Positions 1 through 33,217 of a DNA stretch of 64,000 nt are shown piece by piece (within the stretch, counting starts at the first letter, position 1; every line of letters begins with the position of its first letter). Source of the stretch: an uncultured Dialister sp. GTDB taxonomy: Bacteria; Bacillota; Negativicutes; Veillonellales; Dialisteraceae. The notes under the pieces were generated by a model. It saw only the letters and a list, made by a program, of their open reading frames with translations, ran no database searches and was not told where the DNA came from. A program made the position numbers and the translations under genes. Where the stretch lies: assembly GCA_938038225.1 (NCBI GenBank), contig CALHRX010000005.1, positions 5,509 through 69,508 on the forward strand, written 5' to 3'.

Positions 1-474
1 AATAATTTTTGCCGTATAGGGAACTACGTGGACCTGCATGCCCGGCTTTACGATGGTCATCCCATCCTCCAGCGGCATCATCGTTTTCCAGTCGAATCCT
101 GCGTCATTCACGACACCTTGTACGGTTTGCTGCGTCGTATAAACAACCTTACGAGCATTTCCGGCTACCAGAGTAACCGGCACCGCTCTTTCCAGAACCA
201 GAATAGAACCATCCTCCACTTCCTTGGAAGAAGACCAAAATGTATCGTAAGTCGACATAGACAGATCCAGTTCGTTTAAAACCGTTTTAAAATTGTCCGC
301 CGTCGTCTTAACCACATACTTGTCTTGTCCGTCATAAACGGTAACCACCTTTTCATGGCTCTTCAGCGATAAATTGAAGGCAGCCAGGACTCGATCGTTC
401 TGACTCACAATTGCCAGGAGCAAAATCAAACAGGTTACTGCATTTTTGACTTTTTCTTGTGTCAGTTTCTTCAT
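1..474 (-). CDS. Partial CDS (3' end lies beyond the window start): secreted/membrane-anchored DUF348/G5-type protein, YabE/RpfB-like, N-terminal portion
   Basis: Reverse-strand translation from the ATG at 472-474 gives MKKLTQEKVKNAVTCLILLLAIVSQ... (signal/TM segment), then repeats typical of DUF348/G5 cell-wall proteins. An RBS GGAGAGTGAAGG lies upstream. The ORF runs off the window edge, so it is absent from the ORF track. Confidence 0.5.
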   Translation of the reverse strand, partial: MKKLTQEKVKNAVTCLILLLAIVSQNDRVLAAFNLSLKSHEKVVTVYDGQDKYVVKTTADNFKTVLNELDLSMSTYDTFWSSSKEVEDGSILVLERAVPVTLVAGNARKVVYTTQQTVQGVVNDAGFDWKTMMPLEDGMTIVKPGMQVHVVPYTAKII

Positions 475-1142
475 CCTTCACTCTCCTATGGCTGACATTC
501 TACCATAGGTGGACTTTTTGTCAAAATTTTTTAAGTTTACAATTTATTTATTCCTTATTTTCTTCGATTTTTACTGTATTTTATCCTATAAAAACTTTTC
601 GCCTTTTAATTTTATATCATGTATTATTTGCTTTTATTTGTACTAAAACTCAGTATTTATCTGTATTCCTTGTTCTTCCTAATTGTCAATTTGTCCTCTA
701 CCGATAGACATTTGTACAAAATTAAAAATTTATGAGTGATTCTATCTCCCATATTACCGTACTTTCTGCATTGATCCGTGGCCGTCCCTGCATAAAATGT
801 AAACTTCATTTTACAGATTGGTTTACTTAGGATTGGCGGTTTTTGTCCCATTTTTTCCATGCATTATTTTCAATTTTTGCTCAATGTGGGAGATTTTGTT
901 CAAAAATATGCCCAACGGAGAGGTTCGTTCCCAAAATCCATGCATTTAAACAGCAAAAGTGGAAATATCCATTCAGGCAAGGTCTGCTTCCGAACAGATG
1001 CCTTTCATTTGCACCCTTTCCCGGGTACTGTACTTTATTCATTTTCCGCCCCAGCAATTCCTGCCCGTTCAAAATTATTTTTCAGACTATGCTTCGCTTT
1101 CCTGAAATATTTCCGCTCCAAATTCCTATCGACAGGGCCGCA

Positions 1143-1221: not shown

Positions 1222-3396
1222 TTATTCTTCATGACTGCTGAAAACCGGTACATAGGGCTCCAGCTTTTGTGCAAGAGACATCTCTGTTTCCTGTGTTCTT
1301 TCTTCCGCCAATGCCTGGAAACGGTTCTGTGCACAAAGCTTTTGTTCGGGAGCGATATCCTTGCGCCACGTTCCGTCAGACTGCATAACATGAGCCTTCT
1401 GATTATCTGCTAATTCCCATTCCAGCATATCGTTCAGCCGCTTGCAAAGATCGGCATCACGGACCGGTACCATAAGCTCTACGCGGTCATTCAGATTTCT
1501 CGGCATCCAGTCTGCACTGCTGATATAAAATTCTTCTCTGCCGCCGTTTTCAAAGCGGAATACACGGCTGTGTTCCAAGAAACGTCCTACCAGGCTTCTT
1601 ACGGTAATATTGTCACTCACGCCGGGAATACCGGGAATCAGAACACAAATTCCCCGGACGATTAAATCAATCTTCACCCCTGCGCAGGATGCTTCATACA
1701 GCTTAGCAATGATTTCCTTATCCAGAAGAGAATTCATCTTTGCTGTAATTCGTGCATTTTCTCCTTCTTTTGCGAACTGGATTTCTCTGTCAATCAGTTC
1801 CATACACCGTTCCCGCAGATTGATAGGTGCCACAATGAAGGAATCCCAGATCGGCGGATCAGAATACCCGGACAGAAGATTGAAAAAAGCAGAAGCATCA
1901 GCGCCAAACCGGTCATTGCAGGTAAAAATTCCCAAATCAGTATAGAGCTTTGCCGTAGAGGCATTGTAGTTCCCCGTTGCCACATGGACATATCGGCGAA
2001 TTCCGTCCTTTTCGCGGCGAATGATAAGGGTGCACTTGGAATGGGTCTTCAGTCCCACCATCCCATAAACTACGTGAGCCCCGGCTTTTTCCAGGCGCCT
2101 TGCCATCAAGATATTGTTGGCTTCGTCAAAACGCGCCTTTACTTCCATCAAAACCGTAACCTGTTTCCCGTTTTGCGCCGCCTTTTCCAGAGCCTGAATA
2201 ATCGGGCTGGAAGAGGAGACACGATACAGAGTCTGTTTGATTGCCAGGACATTGTCATCCACTGCAGCAGAGGCAACAAAGTTAACAACGGAATCATCAA
2301 AAGATTCATAGGGAAGGTGAACCAGGAGGTCTTTTTCACGGATCATGTCAAAAATATTCCGCTTCTTTCCCTTTTCCAATTCAATCATAGACCAAGGGCG
2401 ATGAGGATGTGCTTCCTTGTAGCGCAGCCGATCATATCCCTTGATACCGCAAAAGCCAAAATACATCGTCATATCCAGCGGTCCGTCGATTTCATACATA
2501 TCTTCTTTTTCAAGATTCATTTCCTGGGTCATGAAACGGCGCATGAAACGACTCGTTCCCCGTTCGAATTCGATACGGACAGCCTGTCCTCTCTGCCGCT
2601 TTTTCAGCTGTTTCTCCACTTCCACAACCAGATCCTGCGCATCTTCTTCATCAATGTACAAATCGGCGTCCCGAATAATGCGGAAAGGCCGGGCTTCCAG
2701 CAAATCATACCCCATAAAAAGACGGGCTGCGTAATAGGTCAGTACCTGTTCCAGAAGAACAAAATCATGACGGCCGGGATTCGACGAATCATCAGGCAGA
2801 CGAATGATTCGGGGCAGCAGGGACGGCACCGGCACAATTGCCGTCTTTACATCGATATCATTTTCTTCATCAATATCGGTTCCTCTTTCATTTTTCTCCA
2901 GGAGCATTGCGATATTCAGGCTTTTCGCTGCCAGGAAGGGAAAAGGATGTGAGGAATCGACAGCCATGGGCGTAACAACCGGGAATATTTCTCTTTCGAA
3001 ATAGTTTTCCAGCCAATCCTGCTGAAAAGGCTTTGCATCCTTGGGTTGAATGAAATAAAGACCTTCTTTTTCCAGTTCCTTCAATATAATTTTCAGATAA
3101 TGATATTGCTGCGTCACAAGATGCTGACAGAAATCAGAAATGGCATCCAGCTGTTCTGCCGGAGTCATATTGGCAATATCCCGGCGGCTGATATTATTTT
3201 CTTTTTGATGTTTCAGACCTGCTACGCGAATCATGAAAAATTCATCCAGATTGGAGCTGGTGATTGCCAGAAATTTCAATTTTTCCAAAAGAGGATTGTT
3301 CGGGTCCACAGCTTCCTGCATGACTCTCCTGTTAAACTGCAGCCAGGACAATTCGCGATTCAAATAATACCGGTGATTCCTGAGATCGGCGTCCAT
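1222..3396 (-). CDS. ppk: Polyphosphate kinase 1
   Basis: 724 aa. The N-terminus MDADLRNHRYYLNRELSWLQFNRRVMQEA and the C-terminal PLD-like domains are diagnostic of PPK1. Confidence 0.95.
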   Translation of the reverse strand: MDADLRNHRYYLNRELSWLQFNRRVMQEAVDPNNPLLEKLKFLAITSSNLDEFFMIRVAGLKHQKENNISRRDIANMTPAEQLDAISDFCQHLVTQQYHYLKIILKELEKEGLYFIQPKDAKPFQQDWLENYFEREIFPVVTPMAVDSSHPFPFLAAKSLNIAMLLEKNERGTDIDEENDIDVKTAIVPVPSLLPRIIRLPDDSSNPGRHDFVLLEQVLTYYAARLFMGYDLLEARPFRIIRDADLYIDEEDAQDLVVEVEKQLKKRQRGQAVRIEFERGTSRFMRRFMTQEMNLEKEDMYEIDGPLDMTMYFGFCGIKGYDRLRYKEAHPHRPWSMIELEKGKKRNIFDMIREKDLLVHLPYESFDDSVVNFVASAAVDDNVLAIKQTLYRVSSSSPIIQALEKAAQNGKQVTVLMEVKARFDEANNILMARRLEKAGAHVVYGMVGLKTHSKCTLIIRREKDGIRRYVHVATGNYNASTAKLYTDLGIFTCNDRFGADASAFFNLLSGYSDPPIWDSFIVAPINLRERCMELIDREIQFAKEGENARITAKMNSLLDKEIIAKLYEASCAGVKIDLIVRGICVLIPGIPGVSDNITVRSLVGRFLEHSRVFRFENGGREEFYISSADWMPRNLNDRVELMVPVRDADLCKRLNDMLEWELADNQKAHVMQSDGTWRKDIAPEQKLCAQNRFQALAEERTQETEMSLAQKLEPYVPVFSSHEE

Positions 3397-3398
3397 AC

Positions 3399-4955
3399 TT
3401 ACCTCCGTTCCAGCTTAGCTTCCAAGCCGAATATAGTTTCAAAAAATTTCTTTTCTTTATCAAACATCCATGTTTCCAAAGCGGTGTCTTCCTGACTGTC
3501 GTACTCAATCAGCAGCGTATCGCCTGTAATACGGGCAGTGATATCTTTCATTTTCTGTTTTCTCGAAATATCCATGGCCCGGACAAGACGAAGAATTGCA
3601 ATCAAACGCAGAGCAGTCATCTTGGACTCATCGGAAAGAATCCGGAAAGGCATATCATCGTCCTTCGGCGTTCCTTTATGGTCATAATAAACAACACTTG
3701 CAACGATATCTTTTTCCCTGTCGGAAATTCCGAATATATCAATTCCCCGGATCATATGCCAGGACTGGATCGAAGAGCCCAGAAGATTGACATATTTTCC
3801 GATCTGATACAGAATAATCGCCATCCGAAGGAGGAATTCATCTCTTTCGTTAAATCCGCCCCGCTTGTCAAAGGCGTTCATAATAATATGGCTGTACAAT
3901 TCCATCACCCGGGCATGCTCCGGTTCATAGTAATAAGATTTCGCGATGGAGCGGGTAAGTTCCAGATTCTGTGCCCGCATATAGAGAAGAGCGTTATCAT
4001 TTGTCTTTTTGGCACCGTAAAACATAACTGCTGCCTGAATAAATTTCATATTCATCAGAGCAACATTCTCTACCGGTACATTTCTCAAAATTTCTTCACA
4101 GATATGAATCGTGGGCAAAACAACCGATGCTTCCCCTTCATTCACATGATATTTCTGCCGAATGATAGATACGGAAAGCGAAGCCGTTTTTCTGTAAAAA
4201 TCATGAATTACAGAAGGAGATACTTCCGTAATCGTATTCTGCTCCACCGGAAGCCCCATCAGCATTCCTGCAATCCGGGCTTCCCGGCCTGAAAGAAACA
4301 ATGCATCAATATGATAATCACGGATGCCCGCCCACAGCGGCTTCATAATAGCATGGATGTATTCGGAAAGAGCCGCAGAGAACGAGCGGGAATCTCTCTG
4401 ATTCATGGTAAAAGTTTCTATAAGACGAAGTGTTCCGATATGTACATTGTGCTGATAGCAGAGCGCTCCGTTCTGCCATACGGTAAGTCCTACACAGCCG
4501 GAGGTAATGTCTACAAAAAGAAAATTCTTTCCGAATTTCTCTTCATGTTCGCGATTGTACCGGCGTACCTGATACTGCAGGCCGAAATGCTTAAAGTAAA
4601 TTTCCTGCGGCATATCCACAATCTGAACATTGAATCCCGTATTGACCCGAATCAAATCCAGAATTGCCCGCTGATTTTCTGCTTCCCGGAGAACCGCCGT
4701 AGCATAAACCGCATACACTTTGACCCGATAGTCATTCAGCAGCTGCTTTAAACCGTTCAGCATATGGCAAAGCTTACGAATCGATGCAAAAGAAAGACTT
4801 CTGTGGTTAAATACTTCCGCACCGAAAGTTGTATCTTTCTGGACAGACTCAATGACACGAATGTCCCCCATGCCCCTGTACTCTGCAATGGACATGGATA
4901 AACTGGCTGATCCGATATGGATAATCCCATAAATCAGCGGCTTTACCTCAGACAT
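3399..4955 (-). CDS. ppx: Ppx/GppA-family exopolyphosphatase with C-terminal HD domain (paralog 1); start moved to the internal ATG with RBS
   Basis: Ppx/GppA N-terminal motif IYGIIHIGSASLSMSI. RBS AGGGAGG sits in front of MSEVKPL. Immediately upstream of ppk in the same orientation. Confidence 0.85.
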   Translation of the reverse strand: MSEVKPLIYGIIHIGSASLSMSIAEYRGMGDIRVIESVQKDTTFGAEVFNHRSLSFASIRKLCHMLNGLKQLLNDYRVKVYAVYATAVLREAENQRAILDLIRVNTGFNVQIVDMPQEIYFKHFGLQYQVRRYNREHEEKFGKNFLFVDITSGCVGLTVWQNGALCYQHNVHIGTLRLIETFTMNQRDSRSFSAALSEYIHAIMKPLWAGIRDYHIDALFLSGREARIAGMLMGLPVEQNTITEVSPSVIHDFYRKTASLSVSIIRQKYHVNEGEASVVLPTIHICEEILRNVPVENVALMNMKFIQAAVMFYGAKKTNDNALLYMRAQNLELTRSIAKSYYYEPEHARVMELYSHIIMNAFDKRGGFNERDEFLLRMAIILYQIGKYVNLLGSSIQSWHMIRGIDIFGISDREKDIVASVVYYDHKGTPKDDDMPFRILSDESKMTALRLIAILRLVRAMDISRKQKMKDITARITGDTLLIEYDSQEDTALETWMFDKEKKFFETIFGLEAKLERR

Positions 4956-5376
4956 AAAAGCCTCCCTTATGATGAAATAAAAAAACATCACGGATCTACA
5001 TTTCCCGCGAAGCTTTCCCCTGTTCATACATGCAGTTTCTTCCTGAGCAAACCTTCTCAGAAGATTCTGTTTTCTCAAAATGACTCATCAAAAGACAACA
5101 GCGGAAAACAGCAAAAAGCTTCGCTTTTATGCGAATTTTCTGCATAAATCTGAAAAATTATATTTCCCCGCCGTCTATAGTTTTATTATATCACAATCCC
5201 CTGTCCGCTTATCCGTTTTTCCCATTCCTTACAAATTTTTTACGTTTCGCTTACTGAATTCCTCAGTTTATACCTCATTTACGCCTTTGACACAGGTTCT
5301 TTAATTCACCCTCGCTGTGGTGTACAATAAAAATGTCAATAAGAATCAATTTCCGAACTGTTCCAGAGGAGAAATC

Positions 5377-6993
5377 ATGAAACGTATTGCCATCATTGAT
5401 TTAGGTTCCAATTCCATCCGTTTTATCATCATTGAAGTTGAATCAAACGGAGCTTACAAATTAATTTATCAGGAAAAGAAATCCATCCGTCTGGCCGAAG
5501 GCATGAGTCCATCCTCAAGGCTTCTTTCGGAAGAAGCCCAGATGAGAGCACTCCGCTGTCTCGCCGTCTATGCAGGCATCATAAAAGTTCAGCAGGTGGA
5601 CAAAGTATTGGCTGTTGCGACGGCAGCCGTACGAAATGCTCTGAACGGAGCCTCTTTCCTTCGAAGAGTCCACCTGTCCACCGGCATTCCCATGACAATC
5701 ATCAGCGGCCAGAAAGAAGCATCTCTGGGTGTTTCCGGGGTTCTCCATACAATCGATGCCAGCGATTTCCTGCTTTTTGATTTGGGCGGAGCCAGCGTGG
5801 AAATTTCCCTGATTCGAAATAAAAAACGTCTTCACTCCGTTTCCATTCCCGTCGGCGCAGTAACTCTGACAGAAAAATTCCACTCCGAGGATACTGTCAC
5901 CAAAGAACAGTCCGAAGAAATCGGAAAATATATTTCCCGGCTTCTGGATAAGATTTCCTGGTTCCCTGCGGAGCCTATCCCCGTAATCGGTGTAGGAGGC
6001 ACCATTCGTAATCTGGCCAAGATTGATCAGCGGGCTTCCGTTTATCCCCTCCACAAGCTGCATAATTATCAGCTTCCCTCAAAGAATCTTTTCGCCATTG
6101 TAGACATGCTTTGCGGAAAAACACGGGACGAACGTCTGAAAATTTCCGGTCTTTCCACTGAGCGTGCCGATATCATTATCGCCGGTTCTCTGGCCGTCCG
6201 GGAAATCGTAAAAAGAGCCAGGGCTCCCTACCTTATTATTTCCGGCTGCGGTCTGCGGGAAGGTCTTTTCTTCCACTACTATGATTCGCTGTACAGGCAG
6301 GAGCCGAAGGGTGAAAAGAATATGCTCCTTGATTCCGTCCGGAACTATCAGCGAACTCTGGCCCCTCACGACACACTTCATACACAATATGTAACGCTTA
6401 TGGCTCTTTCACTTTTTGATCAGTGGGCCAAGAGACATCAGCTCCCGCAAAGGCTTCGGCACGTTCTGGCTGCTGCCGGTTATCTCCATGATGTAGGTAC
6501 TCTGATCAATTATTACAGCCATGCCCGGCACAGTGCCTATATGGTAGCCAACGCGCATATCTTCGGATGGACTCACAGAGAACAGCTCATGGCGGCTCTG
6601 GTCTGCGCATTCCACCATGGCTATTCCGGAAAGATGATGAAGTCATTCCCGCATACATGTCTTCTGACAGAAGAAGATGTCCGTCAGGTAAAAATTCTTT
6701 CCCTTTTCCTCGCTTTGGCGGAAGCACTGGATGAAAACAGAGAACATTGCATTACCCGGCTGATCTGTGCCGACCGCAAGAAGGCCATGGACCTTCGTAT
6801 TTATACTTCGTCAGATAACTTTGATGTTCCCGCTCATGCCGTCAATCATCTGTTAAAGGACTTTGAAAAATCCTTCGGAATCCCCCTGCTGATTCAGTGG
6901 TTCCCCGGTACAAAAGGGAAAAATGAAATTCTGGAAAAAGCCAAACGGTTATGTGCTGCAGATGCGGCGGTTCCCGAATCCGTTCATTCCTGA
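5377..6993 (+). CDS. Ppx/GppA-family phosphatase with C-terminal HD domain (paralog 2); start at MKRIAIIDLGSNS
   Basis: Motif AIIDLGSNSIRFII and an HD-like region YLHDVGTLINYYSHARHS. RBS GAGGAG lies 7 nt upstream of the ATG at 5377. Confidence 0.85.
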   Translation: MKRIAIIDLGSNSIRFIIIEVESNGAYKLIYQEKKSIRLAEGMSPSSRLLSEEAQMRALRCLAVYAGIIKVQQVDKVLAVATAAVRNALNGASFLRRVHLSTGIPMTIISGQKEASLGVSGVLHTIDASDFLLFDLGGASVEISLIRNKKRLHSVSIPVGAVTLTEKFHSEDTVTKEQSEEIGKYISRLLDKISWFPAEPIPVIGVGGTIRNLAKIDQRASVYPLHKLHNYQLPSKNLFAIVDMLCGKTRDERLKISGLSTERADIIIAGSLAVREIVKRARAPYLIISGCGLREGLFFHYYDSLYRQEPKGEKNMLLDSVRNYQRTLAPHDTLHTQYVTLMALSLFDQWAKRHQLPQRLRHVLAAAGYLHDVGTLINYYSHARHSAYMVANAHIFGWTHREQLMAALVCAFHHGYSGKMMKSFPHTCLLTEEDVRQVKILSLFLALAEALDENREHCITRLICADRKKAMDLRIYTSSDNFDVPAHAVNHLLKDFEKSFGIPLLIQWFPGTKGKNEILEKAKRLCAADAAVPESVHS

Positions 6994-7089: not shown

Positions 7090-7584
7090 ATGACAGAAAA
7101 AAGAGAGGGTCTGGAAAATCTGACTCTTCTGGGAAACCAAAATACAAAATATGCCTTTGATTATAATCCGGATCTTTTGGAAAAAATCCCCAACAAGCAT
7201 ACGGATAATGACTACTTTGTAAAATTCAACTGTCCGGAATTTACAAGCCTTTGCCCCAAAACGGGACAGCCGGACTTTGCTACCATTTATATTTCCTACA
7301 TCCCCGATCAATACATCGTGGAAAGCAAGTCGCTGAAGCTGTACCTTTTCAGTTTCCGCAATCACGGAGACTTCCATGAAGACTGTGTGAATATGATTCT
7401 GAAAGATCTTGTTCACCTTCTCAAGCCCCGATACATGGAAGTATGGGGCCGCTTTCTCCCCCGCGGCGGTCTTTCCATAGATCCTTATGCCAATTACGGA
7501 ATGCCTGATACGGAATGGAAAGATTTTGCCCGCTATCGTCTTCTTCACCATGACTTGAATCCGGAAAAGGTAGATAATCGATAA
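7090..7584 (+). CDS. queF: NADPH-dependent 7-cyano-7-deazaguanine (preQ0) reductase
   Basis: 164 aa. The motifs [17 protein letters not shown] and the E(S/L)KSLKLYL region are characteristic of unimodular QueF. Confidence 0.9.
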
Positions 7585-7716
7585 AAGTTCTCTGCTTTTT
7601 TCCGCCTCAAGCGTAAAATTCCGCAGGAGCTCCTCTTCGCCTTTGCAGGGCATTCGGGCGGCTCCGTTTGGAATATATAAGTATACAGATATCCAATATC
7701 ATTAAGGAGGCGCCTT

Positions 7717-8586
7717 TTGGAAAACCAAAACGCAGTATCACAGGCCGTCAATGCCGAACTGGACTGGACCGGACACCTTCTGAACAATCTGAAGGATGTC
7801 GCTTTAGCCCGCGGAATGGATTGGATTACCGCAATCCTTATTTTTATCATCGGATATATCATCTGCCGATATATCCGGCGCGGTGCCCGTCATCTGCTGG
7901 AACGCAGCAATGTAGATCCGTCTGCACGAAGCTTCATTTCTGAAATTATATTCTTTTTCTTCCTGGCTATCGTTGTCCTCTTCGCACTGGGTACCGCCGG
8001 ATTCAATGCGGGAACCTTGGCGGCAGCCTTCGGCGGCATCGGTCTTGCCATTGCACTTGGATTAAAAGATAATATCGGCAATGTAGCCTCAGGAATTTTC
8101 ATTCTGATCTTCAAACCTTTCCGTGTGGGAGATTATATCAAAACTTCTGCAGGTGAAGGAACGGTGAAGGATATCCGTATCATGTATACCGTTCTTTCTA
8201 CGCTGGGCAACCAAATGATCGTAATCCCTAATTCTGCTCTGATCAGCAGCCCTATCAAAAACTATTCCTATAATGATGTAAGAAATCTGGAATACACTTT
8301 CGGCGTGGGGTATGACACCGATCTGCGTTCCTGCCTTTCTCTTTTGCGGGAAATTTTCAGCGAAAGCCCGTATGTACTGGATAAAGAAGGAATTACAATC
8401 TATATTTCCGAAATGGCTGCATCTTCCATCAATATTTATGCCAGAGCTCCGGTTGACCGGACCAAATTTTACGAAGCACAGAATGAAATTTATATTGCCG
8501 TCAAGGCCGCCTTTGACCGGGAAGGCATTGACATTCCATTCCCTCAGCTGGTCATCCATACTGCTCCGGACAAACTTTCATCTTGA
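7717..8586 (+). CDS. Small-conductance mechanosensitive channel, MscS family
   Basis: 289 aa with an N-terminal TM segment and the MscS beta-domain signature FKPFRVGDYIKTSAGEGTVKDI. Confidence 0.85.
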   Translation: MENQNAVSQAVNAELDWTGHLLNNLKDVALARGMDWITAILIFIIGYIICRYIRRGARHLLERSNVDPSARSFISEIIFFFFLAIVVLFALGTAGFNAGTLAAAFGGIGLAIALGLKDNIGNVASGIFILIFKPFRVGDYIKTSAGEGTVKDIRIMYTVLSTLGNQMIVIPNSALISSPIKNYSYNDVRNLEYTFGVGYDTDLRSCLSLLREIFSESPYVLDKEGITIYISEMAASSINIYARAPVDRTKFYEAQNEIYIAVKAAFDREGIDIPFPQLVIHTAPDKLSS

Positions 8587-8611
8587 CAAGCTCACTTAAA
8601 GAATGATAGAT
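8583..8611 (+). promoter_or_regulatory. Sigma-70-type promoter for the T-box leader
   Basis: TTGACA (8583-8588), a 17-nt spacer, then ATAGAT preceded by TG (extended -10). It overlaps the mscS stop. Confidence 0.55.
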
Positions 8612-8617
8612 TTAGAA

Positions 8618-8880
8618 ATAATACAAATCCTTTGAAGGGGAAGAGTAATAAAGAAAATGTGCTACAGGGAGCCGGCGCGAGTGGAAGTCCGGTGCGGCAG
8701 TCTTTATGAATGGGCCCCGGAGGTGCTTCTTCGAATCTTCGGATGTAGAAGCTGACGGTGTCTCCGTTACCGGACTAAGTAAGCTGGGCTTTTGCGCCAA
8801 TAAGGGTGGTACCGCGGAATCTGTTCCTTTCGTCCCTTTGCCGATTATTACGGCAGAGGAACGAAAGGATTTTTTTATGC
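8618..8880 (+). promoter_or_regulatory. T-box riboswitch leader (tRNA-sensing), probable methionine specifier, with intrinsic terminator
   Basis: Canonical T-box sequence AAUAAGGGUGGUACCGCGG at 8799-8818. The variable base is U, implying a tRNA with discriminator A73. Terminator hairpin TTCCTTTCGTCCCTTTGCCG...CGGCAGAGGAACGAAAGGA plus T7 at 8822-8879. Stem-I-like elements are present (GAAGGGGAAGAGUA K-turn/AG box). The candidate specifier UUU-AUG-A lies at about 8746-8752. Confidence 0.8.
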
Positions 8881-8892
8881 AGGAGGTACATT

Positions 8893-10380
8893 ATGGAAGC
8901 TGTGAAGAATGTCTCGACACTTGTCTTTGTAAAAGCCAGAGGCGGACGCTTCCGCTGGCTGACGGTTTCCACCCTGATGCTTGCCATCGGTATGCTCCTT
9001 CATCTGGTATCTCCCTCCATGGCGGGCTTCACACCGAACTGGATGATTGCCGCCTATGTTGTCGCAATCCTGCTGACCAAGCCCACCTATAAGCAGTGCC
9101 TCGGCATCTGCATGGTAGCTGCTCTGATGGAGGTTTTTACCAGCAAATCTGCTTTCCCCTACGGTGACTTTGCTTCGGAATTCGCCGGAGCCTTTCTTGC
9201 CGGATTCTTTGCACATTCGGTTCCCCCGATTAAGATCGGAAGATTTTCTCTCCGGCCTTCCATTGCCGGCTTTATTACAACCCTTGTCTCCGGCGGAATA
9301 TTTGTCACCATCCTGAAGTGGGTTCTGAATATCCCCATGCCTGTTTACCTGTACGCTATTCTTCCCGCTGTCGTGATGGTTGCTGTCGGCAATGCCATTA
9401 TTACTCCCTTCCTTTATTTTCCGGCACTTCGCCTTTTCCGTTCCATGCATTATATGTCGGAATCCGATGTCACAGACAGCGATCACTCTCAGCTGATTCT
9501 GAAACAGCAGGAAGAAGGAATTGTAGCCTGCGAGCACGTCACCTATACATATCCCTTTTCTGAAAAACCGGCTCTGACAGATGTCTGCCTGACTGTAGAA
9601 AAAGGAGATTTCCTTGTTGTCACCGGCCCGAACGGAGCAGGAAAGACGACCCTTCTCATGTCCATGGCCGGTGCAGTCCCCCATTATTTCGGAGGGTGCC
9701 TTTCCGGGATGGTTTTCACCGGAGGGAAAGCGGTCACACAGCATTCGATCTCCGACCTTGCCTCCTCCATCGGTGTCATCCTTGCCGACTATAAAGCACA
9801 GATTGTAACCCTTACCGTGGAAGAGGAAATGGCCTTTACACTGGAAAACCACGGATTCCCGCCGGAGGAAATCCGGCGCCGCTCCAAAGATGCATTAGCC
9901 AAGGTTCACCTGGAAGGGCTGGAAAGCCGGAAAATCTCTACCCTTTCCGGCGGTCAGTGCCAGCGTCTGGCAGTCGCTGCAGCCCTTGCAGAAGAACCGG
10001 AAATCATTGTATTCGACGAACCGACTTCCGCCCTGGATCCGGAAGGAATCCGGGAATTCTATCAAATGGTAGGCGAGCTGAATCAAAAAGAAGGCCTTAC
10101 GGTGATCATCGCCGACCATCATCTGGAAGCCACACTGCCTTATGCAAAGCACTTTGTCCTCATGCAGAAAGGCCGGCTCATGAAAAAAGGAACTCCGGAA
10201 AGCGTCATGAAATATATGAAGGAAAACCATATTTATGAAGAAGCGATCCCGGAAATGTACCGGGTACAGCTGGATCTGGAGCAGAAAGGATTTTCCTTTG
10301 CACAGCCATTCCTGTCAATCGCCGATGCGGAAAAATCTGTAAGGGATTCCTTCCGGAAAGGAGAAGAACGCCATGCTTGA
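8893..10380 (+). CDS. ECF transporter S component (about 183 aa, multi-TM) fused in-frame to ECF ATPase EcfA; probably a methionine/precursor-specific dedicated ECF module
   Basis: RBS AGGAGG, then MEAVKNV at 8893. The hydrophobic S-like domain runs on without a stop codon into an ABC ATPase carrying Walker A GPNGAGKTTL, signature LSGGQ and Walker B IIVFDEPTSALD. Frame continuity was checked across 9420-9540. Confidence 0.7.
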   Translation: MEAVKNVSTLVFVKARGGRFRWLTVSTLMLAIGMLLHLVSPSMAGFTPNWMIAAYVVAILLTKPTYKQCLGICMVAALMEVFTSKSAFPYGDFASEFAGAFLAGFFAHSVPPIKIGRFSLRPSIAGFITTLVSGGIFVTILKWVLNIPMPVYLYAILPAVVMVAVGNAIITPFLYFPALRLFRSMHYMSESDVTDSDHSQLILKQQEEGIVACEHVTYTYPFSEKPALTDVCLTVEKGDFLVVTGPNGAGKTTLLMSMAGAVPHYFGGCLSGMVFTGGKAVTQHSISDLASSIGVILADYKAQIVTLTVEEEMAFTLENHGFPPEEIRRRSKDALAKVHLEGLESRKISTLSGGQCQRLAVAAALAEEPEIIVFDEPTSALDPEGIREFYQMVGELNQKEGLTVIIADHHLEATLPYAKHFVLMQKGRLMKKGTPESVMKYMKENHIYEEAIPEMYRVQLDLEQKGFSFAQPFLSIADAEKSVRDSFRKGEERHA

Positions 10381-11188
10381 ACTGGATCACGTTACATTTC
10401 AATACGGCCCCGGACTTCCTCTTGTACTGGACGATGTATCTCTTTCCGTCGGAAAAGGAGAATTCATTGCTGTTACCGGACGGAACGGAAGCGGAAAAAC
10501 AACAATCACCCGTCTTCTGACCGGTCTGGAAAAACCTGTCAAAGGACGCATTCTCTATAACGGCAAAAATGTGACGGAAGAAGATCCGTCCCGCCGCAGC
10601 CGTTTCATCGGTTATGTGTTCCAGCAGCCGGACCGACAGATGTTCATGCCTACAGTCCGGGAAGAAGTTGCCTTCGGCCCCTATCATCAGGGAAAGCGGG
10701 GTGCAGAGCTGGAGAATGCCATTGACCGGGCTCTGGAAGCTACTGACACAAAAAGACTGGAAAATGAATATCCCCGCACGCTTTCCCGGGGAGACCAGCA
10801 GCGCGTCGCTATCGCCTCTGCATTGGCAATGGATACAGAATATCTTGTGCTGGATGAACCCACCAGCGGACAGGACGGAAAAGAAAGAAAGCGCCTTGTT
10901 ACTCTGATCAGAGACCTGCAGGAACAGGGCATTTCCATTCTGCTGATCACCCATGATATGGATATCGTAGCCGGTGCCTGCGGAAGAGTTATTGTTGTAG
11001 CCCATTCGAAAATTGTATTTGACGGAAAACCGGAAATCCTGTTTTCTGAGGAAGGCTGCCCTGAGCAATGGGGTCTTGCATATCCCCCGTCAGTTCTTCT
11101 GGGCCGACAGCTTCCGGGATCGCCTTACTGCAAAGATATGGATACCTTTGAGAAGACCTTTTTACAATTGAAGGAGGAGTCAAAATGA
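10373..11188 (+). CDS. ECF transporter ATPase EcfA' (second ABC ATPase)
   Basis: Walker A GRNGSGKTT, signature LSRGDQQRV, Walker B LVLDEPTSGQD. The start overlaps the previous stop (ATGCTTGA). Confidence 0.85.
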   Translation: MLELDHVTFQYGPGLPLVLDDVSLSVGKGEFIAVTGRNGSGKTTITRLLTGLEKPVKGRILYNGKNVTEEDPSRRSRFIGYVFQQPDRQMFMPTVREEVAFGPYHQGKRGAELENAIDRALEATDTKRLENEYPRTLSRGDQQRVAIASALAMDTEYLVLDEPTSGQDGKERKRLVTLIRDLQEQGISILLITHDMDIVAGACGRVIVVAHSKIVFDGKPEILFSEEGCPEQWGLAYPPSVLLGRQLPGSPYCKDMDTFEKTFLQLKEESK

Positions 11189-11868
11189 GAAATCTCGTAC
11201 CGCTTACAAAAATTCTCCTTACCTTCGGCACGGCCGTCTGGGCAATTGTCCTTCAGCAGCCGGTCAGTCTTCTCGTTCTTTGCCTGGCTGAGCTTTTTAT
11301 TCTCCTGATTTCCGGGGAACTGTTCAAAAATATCAAAGCCGTTTTTATGCTGCTGATCTTTTCCCTCTGCCTCGGGCTGATTCAAAAAGTCGGCGGCGGT
11401 ACCTCTGAAGAAGCAGTGGTGGCAGCACTCCGCATGCTGAATATGACCTTGCTCTTCATTTATCTCCTGGGTACCGTAAAGCTCCAGGATCTGACTGCTT
11501 CCATGGTCCGCCAGCTGAAAGTTCCTTATGAATACGCTTTCATGTTCACAGCAGGCCTTCGGTTCATTCCCGATTTTATTGCAGAAAACCGGGCTGTTTC
11601 CGAAGCGCAGGCCTGCCGGGGCCTTTCCCTGAAAGGCAATTTCATCAAACAGCTTAAACGATATATGTCCATCGTCAGACCTTTGATGCTCCGTTCCCTC
11701 GGCCGCAGTGAAACAATGGCCCTGTCCCTGGAACTCCGGGGCTTCGGCGGAAAAAACCGCACTTTTCTGGAAAGCGTATCCTTGAAAGGCCGGGATTATT
11801 TCTTCCTTGTCCTGATTTTTGCAGTAACCGCCGCTGTCATTTACGGAAGAATCCGCTTCGGCCTCTGA
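11185..11868 (+). CDS. ecfT: ECF transporter transmembrane T component (EcfT/CbiQ family)
   Basis: 227-aa multi-TM protein with the conserved ARGF/RGFGG-like motif (LELRGFGG). It overlaps the ecfA' stop. Confidence 0.85.
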   Translation: MRNLVPLTKILLTFGTAVWAIVLQQPVSLLVLCLAELFILLISGELFKNIKAVFMLLIFSLCLGLIQKVGGGTSEEAVVAALRMLNMTLLFIYLLGTVKLQDLTASMVRQLKVPYEYAFMFTAGLRFIPDFIAENRAVSEAQACRGLSLKGNFIKQLKRYMSIVRPLMLRSLGRSETMALSLELRGFGGKNRTFLESVSLKGRDYFFLVLIFAVTAAVIYGRIRFGL

Positions 11869-11876
11869 TTTGCAAA

Positions 11877-11925
11877 AGCAGCAGGGCGGAATTCCAGCCG
11901 CTGAAATCCCGCCCTGCTGCTTTTA
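11877..11925. terminator. Bidirectional intrinsic terminator between ecfT (+) and folD (-)
   Basis: Stem GCAGCAGGGCGG (11878-11889) pairs with CCGCCCTGCTGC (11909-11920). It is flanked by an A-run upstream and a T-run downstream. Confidence 0.7.
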
Positions 11926-12084
11926 TTGTGTCTTTTTCCGGTAAACTGACCGCCGCATTTTCCCTGATTTTCCGAATACAATCCGCAAAAAAGAGTACAG
12001 ATTCCCGAAAGAAGATTTCCGTCTTCTCCCGAAGAATTCTGTACTCTTTTTGATTGTTTCCGGCTGCTCCGCCGAAAACGATTT

Positions 12085-12933
12085 TTATTTTTCAGCCTTC
12101 ATCTCTGCAGCTTTCAGGATATTTTCTATGACCATCGTCGTAGTCACACTGCCCACACCGCCCGGAACCGGCGTAATAGCAGATGCCTTTTCGGAAACAG
12201 CCTCAAAATCTACATCTCCCACGGTTTTTCCTTCCACGCGGTTGATGCCTACATCGATAACAACAGCTCCCTCTTTGACCATATCCTTTGTCACATACCC
12301 CGGCCGGCCTACTGCCGCTACCAGGATATCTGCCGTTCTCGTCACATCCGCCAGATTTTCCGTTTTGGAATGGCAAATCGTGACCGTTGCATTCCGTTCA
12401 AGAAGCATCAGGGAAACCGGTTTTCCGATGACATTGCTCCGTCCGATAACCACTGCCTTTTTCCCCTGCGGATCAATGCCGTAATGATCCAGGATAGACA
12501 GGACCGCCCGGGGTGTACAGCCGAAAAGGCCTTCCTTTCCGGCAAAAAGACGGCCTGCATTGGCCACCGTCAGGCCATCGATATCCTTATCCGGCACTAT
12601 GCGGGAAATCATTTTCTCTTCATCGATTCCCTTGGGGAGCGGCATCATCATAAGAATTCCCGTAACAGATGCATCACCGTTTAACCGGTCGATCAGCTCC
12701 GCCAATTCCGCCTCCGTCACCGATTCCGGCATTTTCTCAACCCCCGCTTCGATGCCGTAGCCTGCAGCCACTTTCTTCATGAAAGAGGCATACATCATGG
12801 AAGGCTTGCTTTCTCCGGCCAGCACAATAGCCAGCTTTGGGCAGATATTCTTTTCCCGCAGTTTTTCCAGCCGCAGAGCCATCTTTTCTTTCAGAGCCTC
12901 TGCAGTTTCCTTACCGTCCAGAAGAATCGCCAT
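12085..12933 (-). CDS. folD: Bifunctional methylene-THF dehydrogenase / methenyl-THF cyclohydrolase
   Basis: 282 aa. Typical FolD sequence [14 protein letters not shown]...KPSMMYASFMKK...GIDEEKMISRIVPDKDIDG. Confidence 0.95.
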   Translation of the reverse strand: MAILLDGKETAEALKEKMALRLEKLREKNICPKLAIVLAGESKPSMMYASFMKKVAAGYGIEAGVEKMPESVTEAELAELIDRLNGDASVTGILMMMPLPKGIDEEKMISRIVPDKDIDGLTVANAGRLFAGKEGLFGCTPRAVLSILDHYGIDPQGKKAVVIGRSNVIGKPVSLMLLERNATVTICHSKTENLADVTRTADILVAAVGRPGYVTKDMVKEGAVVIDVGINRVEGKTVGDVDFEAVSEKASAITPVPGGVGSVTTTMVIENILKAAEMKAEK

Positions 12934-14600
12934 CAGAAGAGCCCCGTAATGTTTCCGTCATCGTCCACATCGATCTTTTCCGCAGCGGGAACCTTCGGCA
13001 GGCCCGGCATGGTCATGACCTTCCCGGTCAGGACAACAACAAATCCCGCACCGGCGGAAATTTTCACTTCTCTTACATGGAGAGTAAATCCGGTAGGAGC
13101 TCCCAGTTTCGTCGGATCATCCGTGAAAGAAGACTGGGTCTTGGCAATGCAGACCGGGACATCCTTATATCCCATCGCCTCGATATGCGCCAGTTCTTTT
13201 TCTGCTGTGCTGTCATACTGCACATCTGCCGCACCGTAGATTTCCTTTGCAATCGTTTCGATCTTTTCCTTCAGGGACAGGTTCAGATCATAAATCGGTT
13301 TGTAATGGGAACCCTGATCAATGGCTTCCAGAACCTTCCAGCCCAGTTCCAGTCCGCCCTTGCCGCCGTCAGCAAAAACAGTGGATTCTGCTACAGCAAC
13401 GCCTTCCCGGCTGCATGCTTCTTCAATGACTTTCTTTTCTTCCGGCGTATCCGAGGGAAACATATTGAGTGCCACTACCAGCGGCAGTCCGAACTTCTTA
13501 ATGTTTGCCACATGACGCATCAGATTCGGCAGGCCTTTTCTGACAGCTTCCGGATTAGGTTCTGTCAGTTCATTCTTTGCCATGCCGCCGTTCATTTTCA
13601 GAGCACGGATAGTCGCTACAATGACAGCTGCAGCAGGCTTCAGTCCGGCAAAGCGGCACTTGATGTCCAGGAATTTTTCCGCACCAAGATCAGCACCGAA
13701 TCCGGCTTCCGTAACTACATAATCGGCCAGATGAAGCGCTGTCTTTGTTGCCAGAACAGAGTTGCAGCCGTGAGCAATATTAGCAAACGGACCGCCGTGG
13801 ATAAAGGCCGGTACATGTTCCAGCGTCTGTACCAGGTTCGGCTTCAGAGCATCCTTCATCAGAGCTGCCATAGCTCCCTGTGCGTGAATGTCCCCTGCCG
13901 TAACCGGCTGATTATCATAAGTATATCCGACAATGATACGGGCAAACCGTTCTTTCATATCCCTGACGGAGGTAGCCAGGCACAGGATAGCCATAACTTC
14001 GGATGCTACGGTAATATCAAAGCTGCTTTCTCTGGGAACCCCGTTTGCGTGGCCGCCGAGACCGACTACAATATGACGAAGAACGCGGTCATTCATGTCC
14101 ATGACACGGTTCCATACTACACGGCGCGGATCGATGCCCAGCTTATTTCCCTGCTGGATGTGATTGTCCACCATGGCTGCCAGAAGATTGTGCGCAGCTG
14201 TGATGGCATGCAGGTCACCGGTGAAATGAAGATTGATATCTTCCATAGGAACAACCTGGGAATAGCCGCCGCCGGCTGCGCCGCCCTTGATTCCCATACA
14301 CGGACCCAGAGACGGTTCACGGAGACAAATCATCGTCTTTTTGCCCAGCTGAGCCAGAGCCTGTCCCAATCCGACACTGGTGGTTGTCTTCCCTTCTCCT
14401 GCAGGAGTCGGCGAAATGGCGGTTACCAGAATCAGCTTTCCCATGGGTTTATTTTTCAGCTCATTGGTAAGCTTCAGAGATATCTTTGCCTTATATCGGC
14501 CGTAATTTTCGATATCCTCCTCGGGAATCTCCAGCTTTGCTCCGATTTCATTGATCGGAAGCATTTTTGCCTTCTGCGCAATTTCAATATCACTTAACAT
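12933..14600 (-). CDS. fhs: Formate--tetrahydrofolate ligase
   Basis: 555 aa. Motifs [15 protein letters not shown] and the [13 protein letters not shown] region. Its stop overlaps the folD start. Confidence 0.95.
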
Positions 14601-14827: not shown

Positions 14828-16792
14828 TCAATGTTTAAACCAGACTTTTATATTGTCGCCCTTTCGTACGGTTGCTCCGATTCCCGGACTTTGTTTATAG
14901 GCATATCCGCTGCCCTCCGGTTCAAACCCCAGTCCGGCCCGGGTGAGCCATTCACCTACATCCCGCATAGACCATCCCGTAAAGGAAGGCAGGCGGAATT
15001 CCTTGACCTGCTCTCCGGGGATTTCCGGCTTATATGTTTCCAAAGGCTTTGCTTCCGGTTTTGCATGAATGGCCTCATCCTGCAGCGTGGGCACCTTAAG
15101 ATACCGCATGATCTGGGTCATGGCTTCCTTGAAAACCGGCGCTGCTACCTGCCCGCCGTAGTAAACCCCTTTCGGCGTATCCAGTACGACCAGACAAATT
15201 GCCTTCGGGTCTTCCGTAGGTCCGAATCCGCAGAAGGAAGCAATGTATTGCCCTTCCAGATAACCGCCGTGCACATCATCCAGCTTCTGTGCCGTTCCCG
15301 TTTTGCCTGCCATATGGTAGCCGGGAATCCGTGCATTCGTACCGCCGCCCTCGGAAACTTCCTTTTCCATCATATCTTTTACCTGGGTTGCCACCGATTC
15401 CGAAATAGGTGTCCCGCTGGTTTCGATCGGTGTAACTTCATAGTCGCTTCCGTCAGGATTCTCTATGCGGTCGATAATATGGGGCTTGACCATCTTTCCG
15501 CCGTTGGCAATCGCACTGTAAGCCTGCACCATCTGCAGCGGTGTTACTGCGATCCCCTGTCCGATTGACATGGTTGCCACATCAATGGGCCGCATATCCT
15601 TCGGCTCAAAAAGCAGACCGGAACCCTCTCCTGGGAACTCGATCCCGGTAGGTTTTCCGAAACCGAAATCCTTCGCATACTTCGTCAGCGTTTCCCCGCC
15701 GGTCAGAAGTCCTATGTGGGCAAATCCCGTATTGATAGACCACTTGATAATATCCACAAGCCGTACGTCCCCATAGGATTCATTATCCCAGTTCTTGATA
15801 TCATGGCCGGATGCCTGCACAACGCCGGGATCATGCCAGACCCGCTGCGTATCATACGTTCCCGCCGCTAAAGCCGCCGAGGCAACGATTGGCTTGAAGG
15901 TAGAGCCCGGTTCATAAATATCGGTTACCGCACGGTTCCTGAACTGTGCTTCCGTTGCATTTTCAAAATGATTCGGATCGTAGGTCGGACTGTTTCCCAA
16001 AGCCAGAATATCACCCGTTTTGGGATCCATTACAATAATAATGCCGCCTTTTGCCTTTGTTTCCTGCATAGCCCGGTTCAGAGCCCGTTCCGCATAAAAC
16101 TGGATATTCTCATCAATTGTCAGGTATACCGATTTTTCCTTTTCTCCCCGGAAAGGCGCCAGCGCCGATTTCAGGATCGGATTCCCCCGGGCATCGGTCA
16201 GGATAGTCTGCTTATTTTTGCCTCCCCGAATCAGACTGTCCAGGGACATTTCCATTCCGTCCAAGCCCTTGTCATCTATCCCTACAAATCCCAGAATATT
16301 CGCCGCCATGCTTCCGTTCGGATAGTACCGCCTGCTTTCATCAAAAAAGCCGAAGCCTTTCCACTTCTTTTCCTTCAGAAGAGCAATGACCTTGTCGGAA
16401 TCCTCCGGTTCCATCAGCCGCTCCATCCATACAAAGCGGGTATCTCTGGACATTTTTTCCTCCAGCACCGCCGGACTCTGCCGCAGAATGGGCGCCAGAG
16501 CTTTCGCCGCTTCTGCCGGACTTACATTCATGCTCCCCGGATCTGCAAAAAAAGATTTAACCGTAATCGAAAAGGCAAGTTCCTTTCCGTTCCTGTCATA
16601 AATCGTTCCCCGCGGTGAAAACAGCGTCTCAATGCCTTTGGTCTGCATCATAGCCATTTCTTCATAATGGCTTCCCTCCACGACCTGTACCCAGATGAGC
16701 CGAAGGAACAAAAGGAATCCCATCACGACAAAAACGCAGAAAAGTCCGATGCTTCTTTTCCGCATCAGATTTCTGGGATTTCTTGGCTTCAT
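14828..16792 (-). CDS. Class B penicillin-binding protein (FtsI/SpoVD/PBP2B-type transpeptidase) with C-terminal PASTA domain
   Basis: 654 aa. N-terminal TM anchor, dimerisation domain, transpeptidase motifs (STFK, SxN, KTGT) and a PASTA-like C-terminus. Confidence 0.9.
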   Translation of the reverse strand: MKPRNPRNLMRKRSIGLFCVFVVMGFLLFLRLIWVQVVEGSHYEEMAMMQTKGIETLFSPRGTIYDRNGKELAFSITVKSFFADPGSMNVSPAEAAKALAPILRQSPAVLEEKMSRDTRFVWMERLMEPEDSDKVIALLKEKKWKGFGFFDESRRYYPNGSMAANILGFVGIDDKGLDGMEMSLDSLIRGGKNKQTILTDARGNPILKSALAPFRGEKEKSVYLTIDENIQFYAERALNRAMQETKAKGGIIIVMDPKTGDILALGNSPTYDPNHFENATEAQFRNRAVTDIYEPGSTFKPIVASAALAAGTYDTQRVWHDPGVVQASGHDIKNWDNESYGDVRLVDIIKWSINTGFAHIGLLTGGETLTKYAKDFGFGKPTGIEFPGEGSGLLFEPKDMRPIDVATMSIGQGIAVTPLQMVQAYSAIANGGKMVKPHIIDRIENPDGSDYEVTPIETSGTPISESVATQVKDMMEKEVSEGGGTNARIPGYHMAGKTGTAQKLDDVHGGYLEGQYIASFCGFGPTEDPKAICLVVLDTPKGVYYGGQVAAPVFKEAMTQIMRYLKVPTLQDEAIHAKPEAKPLETYKPEIPGEQVKEFRLPSFTGWSMRDVGEWLTRAGLGFEPEGSGYAYKQSPGIGATVRKGDNIKVWFKH

Positions 16793-32730: not shown

Positions 32731-32806
32731 GGGCGATTAGCTCAGCTGGGAGAGCGTCTGCCTTACAAGCAGAATGTCAGCAGTTCGATCCTGTTATCGC
32801 CCACCA
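32731..32806 (+). tRNA. tRNA-Val (anticodon TAC)
   Basis: Cloverleaf GGGCGAT...ATCGCCCA acceptor, anticodon loop CUUACAA, T-loop GTTCGATCC, CCA encoded. Confidence 0.9.
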
Positions 32807-32807
32807 C

Positions 32808-32840
32808 AAAAAAGACTTCACGATGTGAAGTCTTTTTTAC
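32808..32840 (+). terminator. Intrinsic terminator after tRNA-Val copy 1
   Basis: AAAAAGACTTCACGATGTGAAGTCTTTTTT hairpin. Confidence 0.7.
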
Positions 32841-32984
32841 TTTTCCGGAAGCGGGACTTCCGGCTTTCCCCAGCCGCTCATTCCTTCCCGAAAGGGGCCC
32901 TTTTCCGAAAATTGACAAAATAAAAAAAGCACTTGCAAAGTCCGAACGAATCTGCTATTATAATGAACGTACTCACGTACGCAT

Positions 32985-33060
32985 TCCTGAATAGCTCAGC
33001 CGGTAGAGCGCGTGACTGTTAATCACGATGTCGCAGGTTCGAACCCTGCTTCAGGAGCCA
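32985..33060 (+). tRNA. tRNA-Asn (anticodon GTT)
   Basis: Acceptor UCCUGAA/UUCAGGA, anticodon loop CUGUUAA, T-loop GTTCGAACC, CCA encoded. A TTGCAA-17-TATTAT promoter with A-rich UP element lies at about 32928-32960. Confidence 0.9.
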
Positions 33061-33062
33061 GT

Positions 33063-33137
33063 GGCCTGTTCGTCAAGTGGTTAAGACACCGCCCTTTCAC
33101 GGCGGGTTCGGGGGTTCGAATCCCCCACAGGTCACCA
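33063..33137 (+). tRNA. tRNA-Glu (anticodon TTC)
   Basis: 3-bp D stem typical of tRNA-Glu, anticodon arm CCGCC-CUUUCAC-GGCGG, T-loop GGGGGTTCGAATCCCCC, CCA encoded. Confidence 0.85.
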
Positions 33138-33141
33138 ATGT

Positions 33142-33217
33142 GGGCGATTAGCTCAGCTGGGAGAGCGTCTGCCTTACAAGCAGAATGTCAGCAGTTCGAT
33201 CCTGTTATCGCCCACCA
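33142..33217 (+). tRNA. tRNA-Val (anticodon TAC), second identical copy
   Basis: Sequence identical to the tRNA at 32731-32806 and followed by the same terminator hairpin (33219-33252, one mismatch). Confidence 0.9.

Follow-up and report, generated by a model that had tools for sequence, protein, structure and literature searches.

In a 64,000-nucleotide stretch of DNA from an uncultured Dialister sp. (contig CALHRX010000005.1; termed here the window), an RNA leader of the T-box type lies between mscS and a three-gene operon that encodes a transporter of the energy-coupling factor (ECF) type. The operon consists of trpP-ecfA, whose product joins a TrpP-family substrate-binding (S) component to an ECF ATPase (A); of ecfA', which encodes a second ECF ATPase (A'); and of ecfT, which encodes a T component. 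Beyond it, on the opposite strand, lie folD and fhs. From the letters alone, an earlier reading of this DNA (termed here the original prediction) had taken the leader to be a methionine (Met) T-box, with an AUG specifier and with a variable base that pairs with A73 of tRNA-Met, and had taken the operon to encode an MtsTUV-type transporter of methionine precursors that is functionally tied to the one-carbon genes fhs-folD. The analysis described here corrects this assignment: the leader is most probably a sensor for tryptophan (Trp) rather than for methionine. Table 1 gives the positions of the features that are involved.

Table 1. Features of the leader, of the operon that follows it and of the convergent genes beyond (CM, covariance model; nt, nucleotides; aa, amino acids; K-turn, kink-turn)
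Feature	Position	Strand	Basis or remarks
Sigma-70-like promoter	8583-8612	+	10/12 consensus matches; extended -10 TG present
-35 element, TTGACA	8583-8588	+	18-nt spacer to -10
Extended -10 element	TG 8604-8605; TAGATT 8607-8612	+	
Stem I, tRNA-decoding domain	8629-8723	+	CM alignment and covariation in relatives
K-turn strands of Stem I	8631-8636 and 8719-8721	+	CM alignment
4-bp Stem I helix	8637-8640/8715-8718	+	CM alignment
Specifier loop, 5' side (AAGAGUA)	8641-8647	+	CM alignment
AG bulge	8663-8670	+	CM alignment
Distal loop of Stem I	8677-8687	+	CM alignment
Specifier loop, 3' side (GAA-UGG-G)	8708-8714	+	CM alignment
Specifier codon UGG (Trp)	8711-8713	+	after GAA S-turn (8708-8710), before purine G8714
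Stem II	about 8725-8754	+	CM alignment
Stem IIA/B element	8756-8769	+	CM alignment; CGG 8756-8758/CCG 8764-8766, then UUA
Stem III, short and weak, GGGCUUUUGCGCC	8786-8798	+	CM alignment
Antiterminator helix A1	8803-8806/8834-8837	+	CM alignment
T-box bulge (UGGUACC)	8807-8813	+	CM alignment; UGGU 8807-8810 is the partner of the tRNA 3' NCCA end
Antiterminator helix A2	8814-8818/8829-8833	+	CM alignment
Intrinsic terminator	8825-8876	+	18-bp stem with one mismatch; U7
Parts of the terminator	stems 8825-8833/8861-8869 and 8835-8843/8851-8859; loop 8844-8850; U7 8870-8876	+	
Ribosome-binding site, GGAGG	8882-8886	+	6 nt before ATG 8893; outside terminator stem
trpP-ecfA fusion	8893-10380	+	495 aa; Pfam PF17099 and PF00005
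Domains of TrpP-EcfA	aa ~1-185; linker of ~25 aa; aa ~210-495		TrpP-family S component; linker; ECF-type ABC (ATP-binding cassette) ATPase
ecfA', second ECF ATPase	10373-11188	+	271 aa; overlaps preceding gene by 8 nt
ecfT, CbiQ-family T component	11185-11868	+	227 aa; overlaps ecfA' by 4 nt
Operon-end terminator hairpin	11874-11924	+	followed by UUUUAUU; -34.4 kcal/mol, z -7.0
Second terminator, between ecfT and folD	about 11989-12051	-	z about -7
folD	12085-12933	-	convergent with operon
fhs	12933-14600	-	convergent with operon

That a T-box leader occurs at the place claimed for it is confirmed by a scan with the covariance models (CMs) of Rfam, in which RF00230 matches the + strand at 8623-8840 with 115 bits (gathering score 93; E = 1e-24; model positions 1-219); this is the single T-box in the whole window. 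As delimited in the original prediction, the leader (8583-8892) extends from the first base of the -35 element to the last base before the start codon. The strings that the original prediction quoted are all present, namely AAUAAGGGUGGUACCGCGG at 8799-8817, GAAGGGGAAGAGUA at 8634-8647 and UUUAUGA at 8703-8709, and the conserved T-box sequence AGGGUGGNACCGCG occurs as AGGGUGGUACCGCG at 8803-8816, where it forms the antiterminator 5' side and the bulge. The description of GAAGGGGAAGAGUA as resembling a K-turn and AG box is accurate in part: this string comprises the K-turn 5' strand, the 4-bp helix and, from the specifier loop, the AGUA side, whereas the AG bulge itself sits further on.

The specificity of a T-box is read from its specifier loop, and here the CM alignment places UGG (Trp), not AUG (Met). 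The TBDB paper places the specifier frame at the second to fourth nucleotides of the specifier bulge, counted from its 3' end; UGG at 8711-8713 occupies this canonical frame, and is followed by G8714 and then by helix. By contrast, the AUG proposed earlier (8706-8708, within UUUAUGA) consists of two paired Stem I bases plus the first G of the conserved GAA: A8706 is paired with U8649, and U8707 with A8648, in a covarying helix above the specifier loop. Related loci were collected by means of a TrpP alignment; a scan of a single genome for each species yielded 80 loci from Dialister, Allisonella, Veillonella, Megasphaera, Negativicoccus and Colibacter. Among these, 79 leaders carry the T-box motif, and every one of the 78 with enough upstream sequence has GAAUGG 90-198 nt before it, for which the chance expectation is ~8% per 330 nt. 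The two bases before GAA, on the other hand, vary among these same 78 leaders (AU 25, GU 22, GG 8, UG 8, AG 5, GC 4, UA 4 and CG 2). Thus UGG is constant in 78/78 leaders and AU precedes GAA in only 25/78; that is, UGG is conserved and AUG is not.

The position of UGG is supported by a second line of evidence, inasmuch as RNAalifold was applied to 44 non-redundant orthologous Stem I sequences without any fitting to the Rfam structure. The structure obtained in this way has 22 pairs, 20 of which show compensatory changes, and GAAUGGN, on the 3' side of the specifier loop, takes part in none of them; this is the same loop that is found by the CM alignment. Within this structure 92.4% of the cells are paired, as opposed to 30-43% in controls in which the partner strands were slid; double-change cells number 283, as opposed to 35-55 in the slid controls; and the covariation score is reached by none of 500 shuffles.

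The variable base of the T-box bulge (the N of UGGN, which lies opposite the tRNA discriminator base) provides further information. In the window this base is U, which can pair with A73, and UGGU was therefore read in the original prediction as a sign of tRNA-Met. Across the 79 related leaders, however, U occurs 39 times, C occurs 40 times, and A or G never occurs. Since both U and C pair with G, but C cannot pair with A, this alternation fits the G73 of tRNA-Trp and not the A73 of tRNA-Met; i.e., half of the related leaders (40/79) have a UGGC that is incapable of the proposed pairing. A U in this position is moreover common within the Trp class: according to the TBDB paper, in 46% of Trp T-boxes a U stands against a cognate tRNA whose discriminator is G. 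A second way of obtaining a methionine codon, by shifting the specifier into the -1 frame (A8710-U8711-G8712), was also considered and rejected: such an AUG is shared by every GAA-UGG Trp T-box, and is incompatible with the UGGC relatives.

The genes downstream of the leader point in the same direction. As had been proposed, the leader precedes a dedicated ECF transporter, whose genes (trpP-ecfA, ecfA' and ecfT) have overlapping reading frames and a common terminator. Its proposed identity as a methionine-type transporter is another matter, inasmuch as the S component matches the Pfam family TrpP (PF17099; 34.2 bits versus a cut-off of 27.2; E = 2.7e-8; aa 22-171) and no other S-component family. 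Orthologs of TrpP-EcfA in Dialister and Megasphaera are named 'tryptophan transporter' by NCBI. An AlphaFold (AF2) model of the N-terminal 205 residues, based on an alignment of 44 sequences, has six helices and a predicted local distance difference test score (pLDDT) of 78.7; its best matching folds in the PDB are all ECF S components, namely RibU, FolT, ThiT and BioY (probability 0.96-1.0; template modeling (TM) score <=0.70). Residues 188-205 are of low confidence in the model, which would fit a flexible linker. In the ATPase part the Walker A, LSGGQ, Walker B and H-loop motifs are intact; this part matches solved EcfA chains in the PDB (E about 4e-42), and its matches to TIGR04520/04521 lie below their cut-offs. 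A review of ECF transporters defines those of group I by a single operon that encodes all four functions, S, A, A' and T; by this definition the operon encodes a dedicated transporter of that group, with an S component that has an A, an A' and a T component of its own. The UGG specifier and the TrpP product, finally, corroborate one another.

It is nevertheless conceivable that the switch senses tRNA-Trp and that the transporter carries something other than free L-tryptophan, such as indole or another precursor or derivative that rescues charging. The substrate is assigned from family membership and the regulatory signal alone; the window protein belongs to TrpP as a distant member, at 34 bits; and the direct evidence of transport comes from the TrpP of Bacillus subtilis, where it rests upon resistance to 5-fluorotryptophan. 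This alternative is unlikely, inasmuch as the specificity of a T-box normally matches the amino acid that is supplied, as it does for the Trp T-box of the Streptococcus suis trpXYZ operon, and members of the family are consistently annotated as tryptophan transporters.

There remains the suggestion of a coherent connection between the leader and one-carbon or methionine metabolism through fhs-folD. These genes do lie immediately downstream on the other strand, as stated in the original prediction, but the connection itself finds no support, because they are convergent with the operon, lie behind two terminators and are rarely syntenic with it. The two terminators are strong and stand back to back (+ strand, 11874-11924; - strand, ~11989-12051; z about -7 for both), so as to separate the operon from folD-fhs, and FolD is within reach in merely 13 of the 80 related loci, in differing arrangements. 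Some Dialister relatives (L029, L040, L044 and L045) have fhs, folD, mscS, the T-box operon and queF all on one strand, whereas the order in the window (7090-14600) is queF, mscS and the T-box operon, followed by inverted folD and fhs. The adjacency is a rearranged, lineage-specific synteny and not co-regulation, and a functional tie was rejected on these grounds. With the AUG half buried in a covarying helix, with C opposite the discriminator base in half of the relatives, with an S component that matches TrpP only, and with one-carbon genes that are not syntenic beyond close relatives, a Met T-box that gates a methionine-precursor transporter retains next to no probability.

The leader has its own promoter and terminator, as originally proposed. 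The stop codon (8584-8586) of mscS, which lies upstream, falls within the -35 element. The intrinsic terminator has a folding energy of -31.4 kcal/mol (z = -6.4), and none of 200 shuffled sequences is equally stable. A simple terminator scan reported nothing at 8400-9000 or at 11800-12150; these negative scans are discounted, because direct folding reveals strong hairpins at both sites. The terminator 5' arm (8825-8843) includes the antiterminator 3' strand (8829-8837), and the two structures are therefore mutually exclusive. In this respect the original prediction was right in substance and wrong in one detail: the T-box sequence (8799-8817) does not overlap the terminator arm; rather, its pairing partner does. 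This arrangement is general among the relatives, in that a hairpin which ends at a run of at least 5 U and which sequesters the antiterminator 3' strand (CGUCCC) occurs in 78 of the 79 related leaders, with a median energy of -23.5 kcal/mol; the sole exception is an artefact of an earlier U-run. The sequences of the terminator stems vary between genera, and it is therefore the structure that is conserved.

These features also bear upon whether the Trp T-box might exert its control chiefly at the level of translation, with the ribosome-binding site sequestered as it is in the ileS T-boxes of actinobacteria. Translational T-boxes do exist. In the window, however, an 18-bp GC-rich hairpin directly precedes U7, and GGAGG (8882-8886) is downstream of the stem and unpaired in the core terminator; together with the retention of hairpin and U-run in all but one of the related leaders, this makes control exerted mainly on translation very improbable.

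The leader is thus, with high confidence, a Trp-specific T-box transcription attenuator that precedes a three-gene operon for an ECF tryptophan importer. It would be expected to operate as follows. Transcription would start ~7-9 nt past the -10 element, near position 8620, whereupon Stem I would capture tRNA-Trp through pairing of its CCA anticodon with UGG (8711-8713). When tryptophan is plentiful, tRNA-Trp would be charged, and its 3' end would be unable to bind the T-box bulge; under these conditions the terminator (8825-8869 plus U7) would form and transcription would end ahead of the start codon. With tryptophan in short supply, tRNA-Trp would be uncharged, and its free 3' end (G73-C-C-A) would pair with UGGU (8807-8810), where the U opposite G73 would form a wobble pair. 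This pairing would stabilize the antiterminator (8803-8837), which would hold the terminator 5' arm and so permit read-through and synthesis of the importer.

The T-box accompanies the operon in other genomes as well. A T-box lies upstream of the operon at or above the Rfam gathering score in 15 of 17 diverse loci, and in the remaining two it scores just under the cut-off (88-89 bits in a second scan, which also detected T-boxes in further loci, including Pelosinus). The combination of a T-box with a trpP ECF operon is accordingly found in Dialister, Allisonella, Veillonella, Megasphaera, Negativicoccus, Colibacter and Pelosinus.

Several observations weigh against the Trp attenuator and are considered here together. 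First, the tRNA-Trp gene of the host is absent from the window, in which ARAGORN finds only tRNA genes for Val, Asn, Glu and Val; ARAGORN likewise finds no tRNA-Trp within the 84 fetched loci, which include the 10 kb that lie to the left of the window. The CCA anticodon and G73 of tRNA-Trp are therefore assumed, on the grounds of what is usual in bacteria and of the alternation between U and C described above. Second, the windows used for the Stem I alignment were anchored on GAATGG, so that the invariance of the motif inside that alignment is by construction and the argument is partly circular; independently of the anchoring, 15 T-boxes were found by Rfam, and the motif occurs in every related leader with enough upstream sequence, at the same structural position. 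Third, the margin of the PF17099 match is modest (34 versus 27 bits), and the Foldseek E-values of the TrpP-domain model are weak (0.09-0.5). Fourth, in the CM register two non-canonical pairs are flagged across Stem II and the Stem IIA/B element; Stem III is weak and poorly aligned to the CM, with four pairs flagged. Fifth, the operon of Veillonella absiana (L080, 2500-4100) has no detectable T-box within 1.5 kb upstream at E-values up to 1; among loci with enough upstream sequence this is the only clear exception.

The last two points might be taken to mean that the element is a decaying, non-functional lookalike of a T-box, since Stem III is weak, Stem II is imperfect and one relative lacks the element altogether. 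Yet the score is above the gathering threshold, all functional motifs are intact, compensatory change is extensive, and the element is conserved in 78-79 leaders from several genera of Negativicutes, so that decay is extremely improbable.

The most unusual property of the operon is the fusion of its S component to an ATPase. A TrpP-to-ATPase fusion frame of 464-522 aa is present in 79 of the 79 loci that have a complete reading frame, and in the one locus whose contig ends within the gene (L068) it is open over all 406 codons present. The gene order is trpP-ecfA, ecfA', ecfT in 58 loci, and is permuted to ecfA', ecfT, trpP-ecfA in 15 Megasphaera and Colibacter loci (L055, L058, L062, L069 and L075 among them), where the T-box precedes ecfA'. 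In Megasphaera sueciensis (L076, 998-5431), two copies of trpP-ecfA flank ecfA'-ecfT. Within Pelosinus (L081, 4001-5427), on the other hand, trpP (189 aa) and ecfA are separate genes with a 1-nt overlap, behind the same kind of Trp T-box; other TrpP homologs of Sporomusaceae are likewise 187-199 aa in length. Because the proteins are fused in all of the Veillonellales loci and separate in Pelosinus and other Sporomusaceae, the fusion, to judge from these comparisons, looks like a Veillonellales-wide event.

In the ECF review the membrane and ATPase subunits of the importers are described as separate chains, and the literature searched, outside of which the key ECF papers lie, contains no explicit description of an S-component-ATPase fusion. 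A tentative proposal, somewhat less probable than its converse, is that the transporter under control is a natural single-chain S-A architecture, in which the S component is tethered to the ATPase through a predicted disordered linker of ~25 residues. If this is true and has gone undescribed, the fusion would provide a natural test case for the 'toppling' model, and the S component could work while permanently tethered to the motor, i.e., without release or exchange.

A number of further observations concern the surroundings of the leader in related genomes. Three Megasphaera loci have a SAM (S-adenosylmethionine) riboswitch at a distance of a few hundred bases upstream from the Trp T-box, on the other strand (L055 1963-2058, L058 756-849 and L061 1434-1529, all on the - strand); this riboswitch belongs to a gene that is divergent. 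In Veillonella ratti (L051, 3384-3484, - strand), the T-box is closely preceded by a pan RNA motif (RF01749; 48 bits) on the opposite strand. At another locus (L010, ~2217) a second T-box motif occurs 1.8 kb upstream of the Trp T-box; it has no GAAUGG before it, and presumably has another specificity and serves a neighboring gene. Eight loci (L007, L011, L024, L025, L027, L031, L033 and L036) have a TrpP region 79-83% identical to that of the window, but are recorded under the names of unrelated taxa (Fusicatenibacter, Paludibacteraceae, Erysipelotrichaceae, Agathobacter, Ruminococcus bromii, Lachnospiraceae, Oscillospiraceae and Acutalibacteraceae); contaminated metagenome bins are the probable cause.

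The other neighbors of the operon within the window are housekeeping genes, including ppk, two ppx paralogs, a penicillin-binding protein (PBP) gene and a gene for a CCA-adding enzyme. The ppk gene adjoins the two paralogs, which encode Ppx/GppA phosphatases and are divergently arranged (1222-6993). The gene of the CCA-adding enzyme type (16789-18291, - strand), whose product has a PolyA_pol head and an HD domain, is ~8 kb from the T-box, a proximity that looks coincidental. A tRNA cluster at 32731-33217 comprises Val(UAC), Asn(GUU), Glu(UUC) and Val(UAC), where both tRNA-Val genes align identically to Rfam. A gut-metagenome contig (L083) encodes an identical ppk product and has gene calls that match the lengths of the window's open reading frames from queF through fhs; on this contig a transfer-messenger RNA (tmRNA) with the tag AKSDFALAA occurs at 16500-16846, ~4 kb past the left end of the window.

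Viewed as a whole, the leader is a routine member of the known Trp T-box class, and the conserved TrpP-EcfA fusion is the sole mildly unusual feature. The operon would be annotated as a tryptophan importer that is induced by tryptophan starvation, with no regulatory tie to fhs-folD. More generally, a T-box together with a trpP ECF operon is a conserved trait of those Veillonellales that live in the gut and mouth (Dialister, Veillonella, Megasphaera and others), which is relevant to the competition for tryptophan in gut and oral communities. The fusion itself is a small structural curiosity for studies of ECF mechanism.

Comparison with known systems places each part of this arrangement in context. 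MtsTUV-type ECF transporters of methionine precursors are under the control of Met T-boxes. The window operon resembles these in being a dedicated ECF transporter under T-box control, but differs in that its specifier is UGG rather than AUG and in that its S component matches TrpP and no other S-component family. The occurrence of a Trp T-box upstream of trpP is an association that has already been published. In Wels et al. 2008 there is no mention of yhaG or trpP. As in the group I systems CbiMNQO and BioMNY, the S, A, A' and T functions are found in one operon; unlike those systems, this one belongs to the TrpP substrate family and has S and A in a single polypeptide.

The TrpP of B. subtilis (YhaG) has been characterized as a tryptophan importer on the basis of 5-fluorotryptophan resistance, and is treated as an S protein that uses the general EcfA1/EcfA2/EcfT module; its gene stands alone and is repressed translationally by TRAP. 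The window protein shares with it the family (PF17099), the six-helix S-component fold and, by prediction, expression that is tied to the supply of tryptophan, but has its own ATPases and T component within the operon, is fused to one of these ATPases and is under T-box control. The closest regulatory parallel is the leader of S. suis trpXYZ, a Trp T-box with a UGG specifier for which attenuation in response to tRNA-Trp has been shown experimentally. Both leaders have (i) a Stem I with a K-turn, specifier loop, AG bulge and distal loop, (ii) Stems II, IIA/B and III, (iii) a 14-nt T-box sequence that lies within an antiterminator bulge, with a competing terminator, and (iv) the UGG specifier; and both control a tryptophan uptake system by transcription attenuation, which for the window is a prediction. 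They differ in the transporter, which is of the ECF type with TrpP in the window and is the binding-protein-dependent TrpXYZ in S. suis, and in the variable base, which is U in the window (a wobble pair with G73) and C in S. suis. With respect to mechanism, there is no difference between the two.

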